Positions 36,761-36,804 of a stretch of DNA of 46,053 nt are shown here, piece after piece (position 1 is the first letter of the stretch; the number at the start of each line of letters is the position of its first letter). Under the pieces are notes generated by a model, which saw only the letters and a program-made list of their open reading frames with translations, was not told the DNA's origin and did no database searches. The stretch is from a virus: IMG/VR virus record IMGVR_UViG_3300010231_000013, positions 1 through 46,053 of that record. One strand, 5' to 3'. The position numbers and the translations under genes were made by a program.

Positions 36761-36804
36761 GCTGCCGTAGCTCAGTGGTAGAGCACTCCCTTGGTAAGGG
36801 AGAG
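36761..36804 (+). other. attP core candidate: 44-nt 5' fragment of tRNA-Thr(GGU), covering the acceptor 5' strand, D arm and complete anticodon stem-loop. No T arm or 3' acceptor strand.
   Basis: GCTGCCG TA GCTC AGTGGTA GAGC A CTCCC TTGGTAA GGGAG AG folds as positions 1-45 of a tRNA. Downstream sequence cannot form a T arm. The int stop is 10 nt away. Confidence 0.8.

Follow-up and report, generated by a model that had tools for sequence, protein, structure and literature searches.

The locus described here raises the question of which part of a tRNA gene a temperate phage carries in its attachment site, and what becomes of the host gene when the phage integrates. The window, by which we mean the complete 46,053-nt stretch of viral DNA that was analysed, contains at positions 36761–36804 a segment of a tRNA gene next to a gene for a tyrosine integrase, and the segment is the 5′ part of the tRNA. 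As a rule, it is the 3′ part of the targeted tRNA gene that a phage holds, the 5′ part and promoter of the host being reused (PMC1635311). The sequence-only reading had set the locus against this rule; the rule is real, but exceptions to it had already been published, and recombination at the 5′ side of a tRNA gene has been termed ‘considerably less frequent’ (PMC6563490). We consider it likely that 36626–37816 serves a temperate tailed phage of Mesorhizobium/Chelativorans-like bacteria (Phyllobacteriaceae) as its integration module, that its attP carries nt 1–44 of tRNA-Thr(GGU), and that on integration the tRNA is rebuilt behind the P arm of the phage and transcribed from it.

The identity block (plus strand, 36761–36804) has the sequence GCTGCCGTAGCTCAGTGGTAGAGCACTCCCTTGGTAAGGGAGAG, corresponding to nt 1–44 of the host tRNA-Thr(GGU). 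It comprises the 5′ strand of the acceptor stem (GCTGCCG), the D arm, the anticodon stem-loop and 2 nt of the variable loop. In the anticodon stem-loop the strands CTCCC (36786–36790) and GGGAG (36798–36802) enclose TTGGTAA (36791–36797), with the anticodon GGT. The block is identical at 44/44 positions to nt 1–44 of the C6 variant of the 75-nt tRNA-Thr(GGU) gene, which is present in 12 of 116 Mesorhizobium/Chelativorans-type genomes among the matches listed. It differs from the majority variant by a single mismatch, C6 for G6. A 33-nt core of the block occurs once in the window, and in none of 100 shuffles. The sharing of an identity block between attP and a host tRNA gene, which is a feature of the canonical type of integration, is therefore found here over all 44 nt. 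The stop codon of the integrase gene (36815–36817) lies 10 nt beyond 36804, just as had been described from the sequence for a tRNA 5′ portion that now proves to match a real tRNA-Thr(GGU) along its full length. It had also been held that neither a T arm nor an acceptor 3′ strand could form downstream, and this agrees with both programs applied. ARAGORN called no tRNA gene in the whole window, with no complete cloverleaf, and the Rfam tRNA model scored the block region at 29.1 bits against a threshold of 29. The Rfam alignment flags non-standard pairs in the acceptor stem and T arm and has gaps across the variable/T-arm region, and a tRNA-like 3′ third is therefore lacking; the T arm and acceptor 3′ strand are absent after the block from the attP of the window.

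The window is the genome of a tailed phage with a single full gene set (TerL, portal/adaptor, major head, tail, lysis, int, ERF and exonuclease). The plus strand carries the large terminase (11668–13107), the portal/adaptor (14335–16056), the major head protein (18011–19000) and the tail proteins, a lysozyme (34553–35038) and an XhlA-like holin (35501–35911). The minus strand carries two small ORFs to the left of the tRNA block, and the integrase and early genes (ERF and a RecE-like exonuclease) to its right. The block is flanked by phage genes, with lysozyme and holin on the left and integrase and early genes on the right, and the source contig (JGI Ga0136217_1000235, a contig of 47,032 nt from metagenome 3300010384) is without host flanks. 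Because phage genes lie on both sides, in the order lysis–attP–int, and host flanks are lacking, the block is located in an attP and not at a prophage junction. DNA-level similarity to related elements is confined to 36626–38012, and the arm, the block, int and ~200 nt upstream of int therefore behave as a mosaic integration cassette. Comparison of 35900–38100 with a phage genome collection by megablast matched only the 44 nt, in phage tRNA-Thr genes, and returned no related phage genome, while a search of genome contigs using the window integrase alone confirmed no relative.

The ends of the assembly are repetitive. The extra ~920 nt of the source contig (L009 85–998) are a repeat of the start of the window at 96% identity, and are not an exact overlap. 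The two ends of the window have a repeat family of ~0.7 kb in common, in which a segment of ~0.65 kb is present in tandem at 62–713 and 774–1401 (94.6% identity), and a third, more diverged copy is found at the end of the window (45882–46053). The source contig appears to break within this repeat array.

The tyrosine integrase (333 aa; minus strand, 36815–37816; PF00589, E = 9e-20) is convergent with the tRNA fragment. Residues of the catalytic type are located in the expected motifs (R182, K205/K207, H263, R266, H267, W289 and Y299), and there are distant matches to XerA/XerC in the PDB and NCBIfam. The P′ arm must overlap the 3′ coding end of int. Of 1,611 homologues of the integrase, those at 72–82% identity are common in assemblies of Mesorhizobium, Chelativorans and Hyphomicrobiales, and all adjoin the same tRNA 5′ fragment. 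An ORF of 126 aa (minus strand, 37642–38022) begins within the 190 nt that precede int and runs, in another frame, across the first 58 int codons. In seven elements it stays open up to a stop at the same position, and six of these were aligned with a mean identity of 73%. The N-terminus is HTH-like, with a weak match to HTH_17 in one of the six members (E = 0.0011); the copy in the window has no PHROG or Pfam match and was not called by the gene callers. This conserved ORF is, tentatively, a candidate excisionase or directionality factor.

The att sites were assembled from relatives of the window phage, whose integrases are 73–82% identical to that of the window; junctions of the window phage itself were not found. 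The attP form is present in three independent contigs (the window, L012 and L011/L135) with phage genes on both sides, and all three have the same layout, in which the arm is followed by tRNA nt 1 to 40–44, then by 10–13 nt and the stop codon of int. In the sequence-only reading it was proposed that attB should be a tRNA-Thr(GGU) gene in candidate host genomes. Scanning genomes for a host promoter motif followed by the 5′ part of the tRNA gave at least 120 loci, and at least 116 of these contain an intact 75-nt tRNA-Thr(GGU) gene behind the host promoter motif GATATGGCAGAAG. Four loci among the matches listed are occupied (L100, L101, L123 and L078).

At the int-proximal junction the order is host murA-side DNA, the GATATGGCAGAAG promoter region, tRNA nt 1 to 41–44, phage-specific DNA and int. 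This is seen in three prophage lineages, i.e. Chelativorans multitrophicus DSM 9103 (L001/L101; truncated tRNA at ~1,346,146 of NZ_JAAAPL010000001.1), a JGI enrichment (L005/L157) and the MAG AWTP1-3 (L013/L100), so that a host 5′ part is indeed left at one junction, as had been anticipated. One and the same integrase protein, P0010, is encoded in L012, which is in the attP form, and in L013, which is integrated. The DNA of these two is identical from nt 1 of the tRNA through int, and unrelated upstream of nt 1, where L012 has the phage sequence ...TGTTGACGAAA..GAAATCAAGGAAACA... and L013 has the host promoter. The canonical 3′-fragment feature is thus not seen, the int-proximal junctions being truncated tRNA genes behind the host promoter.

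The distal junction was sought as the conserved phage arm followed by the start of the tRNA. In L136 and L154 the phage arm is followed by an intact tRNA-Thr(GGU) gene called by ARAGORN, and then by non-phage DNA. L136 is a metagenome contig of 509,505 nt, and is also the longest contig containing the integrase P0011. In both, a homologue of lysozyme is encoded ~2.5 kb upstream of an arm that is homologous to window 36626–36760, and the junction DNA is 79% identical to window 36626–36804. The tRNA therefore has phage DNA upstream, which had been predicted for a reconstituted gene. The alternative that the target tRNA is inactivated had also been offered; it is disfavoured because the tRNA sequence is restored intact at the distal junction. 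This junction was recovered for a single lineage (P0011), in two contigs from different samples. An IMG/VR contig of 53,105 nt (3300017548_000002) contains both junctions, the distal one as L154 and int with the truncated tRNA and host promoter as L157; the tRNA starts would be ~50.4 kb apart if L154 begins at position 1 of the contig. A pattern for viral contigs that required a fixed T before the tRNA missed L154. Searches for a second distal junction with the pattern TTGACGAAA-N5-GAAATCAAGG returned the known loci and two chance matches only, and those with GAACARAYTGGTGCAGC gave 63 chance matches. A search via P0121, the protein adjoining the arm of L012, returned attP-form contigs only. 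The features that define the reversed class, namely a 5′ part in attP, a host 5′ stub at one junction and a rebuilt gene at the other, are present in the relatives; the window phage fits the defining features of this 5′-fragment class and fails those of the canonical 3′-fragment class.

These comparisons bear directly on two other accounts of the block. It might be a decaying tRNA pseudogene encoded by the phage, lying near int and unrelated to attachment. Phages do carry tRNA-Thr genes of this kind, such as that of DSS3_MAL1, which is 100% identical over the 44 nt, and Rfam scores the region as a marginal full-length tRNA. Against this, homology between the attP forms, attB and both junctions breaks off precisely at either end of the block, and the block is 100% conserved while the bases that follow are not tRNA-like and differ between phages; we regard a pseudogene as extremely unlikely. 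The second account is that the window is a chromosomal stretch with two adjacent elements, and that 36761–36804 is a junction of the attL/attR type. The source contig is linear, and its ends are repeats of 96% similarity, not an exact overlap, as this would allow. Yet the sequence to the left of the block is related to the arm lying before the intact tRNA in lysogens and not to the host promoter, the order lysis–arm–fragment–int is repeated in the independent contigs L012 and L135, and the window holds one full phage gene set. This too is very improbable, and we retain the interpretation of the block as part of a phage attP.

The junction sequences of the relatives show an integration reaction in which the tyrosine integrase recombines attP with the chromosomal tRNA-Thr(GGU) gene. 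On the int side phage DNA becomes joined to the promoter and 5′ part of the host tRNA gene, which leaves a dead stub of 41–44 nt that is convergent with int. On the far side, about 46–50 kb away, the P arm and phage-borne 5′ part are joined to the 3′ part of the host gene, and this far junction holds a sequence-perfect tRNA-Thr with an upstream region consisting entirely of phage DNA. For the Chelativorans multitrophicus lineage the expected distal junction would be the phage arm followed by a tRNA-Thr beginning GCTGCC and ending ...GGCAGCACCA. The rebuilt tRNA is presumed to be transcribed from the P arm, and read-through from upstream genes on the same strand may occur in some relatives.

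The position of the crossover is bounded by the extent of tRNA identity. In variants of the integrase family the identity ends at nt 40, 41, 42 or 44, following GGG, GGGA, GGGAG and GGGAGAG, respectively, so the crossover must lie at or to the left of nt 40 (bounds nt 1–40). In the two other occupied sites the identity ends at nt 42 (L123) and nt 46 (L078). The putative core is the pair of inverted arms CTCCC/GGGAG around the 7-nt loop TTGGTAA (plus strand, 36786–36802), which is the likely overlap region, and the crossover probably occurs in the anticodon loop TTGGTAA. Integrases acting in the anticodon loop form a described group (Williams 2002, as cited in PMC1635311).

The anticodon hairpin is followed in the window by a T-rich spacer of 10 nt, CGTTTTCAAA (plus strand, 36805–36814), between the tRNA block and the int stop codon. 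A run of T3–T5 is found 1–9 nt after the hairpin in all six variants compared (window 36786–36814, L001, L005, L011, L012 and L143), and the neighbouring bases are not conserved. In predicted folds the hairpin is lengthened by one or two G–C pairs ahead of the U run. A terminator scan made no call at the hairpin and T run. More speculatively, transcription of the orphan tRNA 5′ fragment may be terminated, if weakly, at hairpin and T run before it enters int in antisense. A separate hairpin on the minus strand (36766–36748) was called as a terminator, and was considered as an int terminator that is split by integration; this was rejected, as L135 and L136 have a G-to-C change that disrupts the stem.

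If the gene is restored in sequence, is it under selection to function? The copy in the phage begins exactly at nt 1, and so extends ~25 nt beyond what a core around the anticodon stem-loop needs. Across four phages, with arms ~79% identical and integrases 73–82% identical, the 44 nt are invariant except at position 6. In the 116 attB tRNAs listed position 6 is always paired with its partner on the 3′ strand, as G:C in 103, C:G in 12 and T:A in one. Since the 5′ half from the phage must pair with the 3′ half from the host, the window phage with C6 would be adapted to C6:G67 hosts. The C6 of the window forms a Watson–Crick pair only in the C6:G67 minority class, which includes Chelativorans spp., Neomesorhizobium albiziae, Mesorhizobium sp. 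KR9-304 and M. quangtriensis. From this pattern we infer that the rebuilt tRNA is functional and under selection, with the assumption that the host needs tRNA-Thr(GGU) to be restored.

The P arm or left arm (plus strand, 36626–36760) is conserved among the related phages, and adjoins the rebuilt tRNA on its upstream side after integration. It was aligned between the window, L012, L135 and L136. The hexamer TTGACG had been singled out in the sequence-only reading and is present at 36723–36728 on the plus strand (−38 to −33 from the tRNA start, with 32 nt separating the two), where it is a predicted −35 element. It lies in TGTTGACGAAA, which is invariant in 4/4 phage arms, and the next 5 nt are variable. 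A second invariant block, GAAATCAAGGAAACA (plus strand, 36737–36751), is alike in the window, L012, L135 and L136, and might serve as a −10/discriminator region or be bound by a protein in attP. The spacing is TTGACG, 17 nt, GAAACA (36746–36751) and then 9 nt to the tRNA start. A scan of 36300–36900 with an E. coli-type sigma-70 consensus called no promoter; GAAACA is a poor −10 element, and GAAATCAAGGAAACA contains only a partial match to the IHF consensus on either strand. Further upstream, direct repeats of CTGCA occur at 36668, 36678, 36698 and 36708 in a 10-nt phase (span 36668–36712), and are candidate arm-type sites. Judged on its sequence, the TTGACG block is tentatively the best candidate for a promoter of the rebuilt tRNA, while the conserved blocks of the P arm could equally be Int-arm, IHF or Xis sites. 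The two ORFs that immediately precede the tRNA block in the window are encoded on the other strand; read-through from adjacent genes is therefore not expected, and a start signal would have to be sought within the arm of 150 nt. The ORFs preceding the distal tRNA in the P0011 prophage share its strand, and read-through is thus possible there.

More distant relatives of the integrase, at 44–57% identity (L137–L141 and L232–L241), have no tRNA beside int. Their int adjoins GGG[AC]CACCCCTCCCCAACGAG, the 5′ hairpin of the alphaproteobacterial serC leader (Rfam RF00517, 22–29 bits), in convergent orientation. Two IMG/VR contigs, L238 (~1790 and 12431) and L240 (~95 and 9931), contain both junctions of ~10-kb elements. 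On the int side the host promoter and a leader stub, with a loop shorter by 1 nt, face int, and on the far side the arm of the element is followed by the intact leader and serC (TIGR01365, 710 bits). L236 is a further serC far junction, and L241 has a host-type promoter. The arms of the serC type contain the promoter-like sequences TTGCGG-N17-GTAGTG or TTGATG-N17-GTATCC, with the same geometry as in the window and better −10-like hexamers. On these sequences a donated promoter appears much more convincing in the serC group than in the window group.

It might alternatively be that integration proceeds as described, and that the rebuilt tRNA is barely transcribed or not at all, the lysogen using another tRNA-Thr and the conserved blocks of the P arm being sites for recombination proteins. 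The result of the sigma-70 scan in 36300–36900 is as this would predict, as is GAAACA as the hexamer 17 nt past TTGACG; the P arms of attP sites are normally dense in Int, IHF and Xis sites, and phased CTGCA repeats are present here. But the copy is perfect from nt 1, with 25 nt surplus to the core, and invariant across diverged phages, and its sole varying position matches the pairing in the host acceptor stem. In addition, relatives of the serC type have promoter-like TTGCGG-N17-GTAGTG arms before the rebuilt leader and serC, so that the clade is argued to supply transcription signals. On balance a silent copy is rather unlikely, and transcription of the rebuilt tRNA from the P arm is the reading that we prefer.

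The clade pattern has its limits. The integrase of L142 (63% identical) adjoins a protease gene and not a tRNA, so not every relative uses a tRNA target or fits the pattern. As a tentative extension, 5′-side polarity might be a heritable property of a clade of tyrosine integrases that act on two or more targets and are found in phages as well as ~10-kb elements of Hyphomicrobiales; such ‘promoter-side’ integration would place an essential host RNA or gene under the signals of the element.

Other elements have also been at the same tRNA gene. In L123 (Mesorhizobium loti DSM 2626) a truncated tRNA-Thr (nt 1–42) lies behind the host promoter, with a convergent integrase ~1 kb further on. This integrase is 33% identical to that of the window, and at least two integrase lineages therefore use the 5′ site of tRNA-Thr(GGU). 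The DNA past the stub in L123 resembles that in L078 (Mesorhizobium kowhaii ICMP 19512), where a direct repeat of 119 nt (889–1007 and 6511–6629, 99% identical) is composed of 73 nt of the host promoter region and nt 1–46 of tRNA-Thr. The repeats flank ~5.5 kb without an integrase, and the first tRNA copy is truncated and the second intact. L078 looks like a remnant of another 5′-side element, with an attachment site that includes the native promoter. A frameshifted N-terminus of integrase type is found just downstream of the rebuilt tRNA in L136 (~4050–4180, minus strand), and another in L078 (6614–7012). Twelve IMG/VR contigs (L144–L153, L155 and L156) contain tRNA-Thr(GGU) without the phage arm, the upstream DNA being of host type or cut off. 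In several of these the tRNA is at the contig edge, which is consistent with tRNA-Thr(GGU) being used also in the ordinary 3′-side way.

How does this arrangement compare with known systems? The canonical anticodon-loop class includes P22 at thrW, P4 at leuX and L5 at tRNA-Gly. As in that class, the window phage has a tyrosine integrase beside attP and convergent with the tRNA, and an identity block containing the symmetric anticodon stem-loop; the block ends at a terminus of the tRNA, so that the gene is restored, and a duplicated tRNA fragment flanks the prophage. In the canonical case the block runs from the crossover to the 3′ end, and the intact gene lies beside int with the host promoter, leaving a displaced 3′ piece. 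In the window phage, in contrast, the block extends from nt 1 up to the crossover; the intact gene stands behind phage DNA at the far end, and the host promoter stays with the stub on the int side. Phage 21 and e14 integrate at icd and replace the 3′ end of an ORF. Like the window phage they carry a substitute for the displaced part of the target, but in the window phage and the serC-leader relatives it is the 5′ end that is replaced, along with the region of the transcription start.

Precedents for integration at the 5′ side include Zhao & Williams 2002 and archaeal elements (e.g. Gaudin et al. 2014 and Cossu et al. 2017), as cited in PMC6563490. Like the window phage, the published elements recombine with the 5′-distal part of the tRNA gene; they differ in that here a complete tailed-phage genome is available in the attP form, with the full att set from relatives. 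The first-named of these precedents is reportedly an element of Mesorhizobium loti, in the same genus group as the hosts here. The reversed arrangement is thus a documented rarity and not the first of its kind. To the known class are added a phage that is complete and in the attP form, the full set of att sites, matching of the acceptor pair between phage and host halves, and a cultured lysogen, together with indications that an integrase clade with a second, non-tRNA target works likewise.

A practical consequence is that elements like the window phage will be mis-delimited, because tools for finding att sites and prophages assume a 3′ part and an intact tRNA beside int (PMC1635311). Assemblies are found that end inside or exactly at the duplicated 44 nt (L003, L008, L014 and L143). 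Scans of the viral collection for the intact tRNA or the P arm returned no match to the IMG/VR prophage from an isolate genome (L160; 637000160_000001, 46,218 nt), and the rebuilt tRNA or P arm may therefore lie outside its boundaries as called. The reversed duplication seems to disturb both assembly and the calling of boundaries.

For the biology of the host, a probably important tRNA would lie behind phage DNA in every lysogen, providing a natural system in which an element supplies transcription signals for the host, and bearing on whether host physiology is coupled to the state of the prophage. This question is directly testable, since a cultured lysogen exists (Chelativorans multitrophicus DSM 9103). 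If promoter-side integration is indeed a property of the clade, the orphaned host promoter would fire toward the 3′ end of int only when the phage is integrated, and could give state-dependent control of int with a logic like that of lambda sib. The relatives with the serC leader suggest that integrase clades can evolve in the polarity with which they replace a target.
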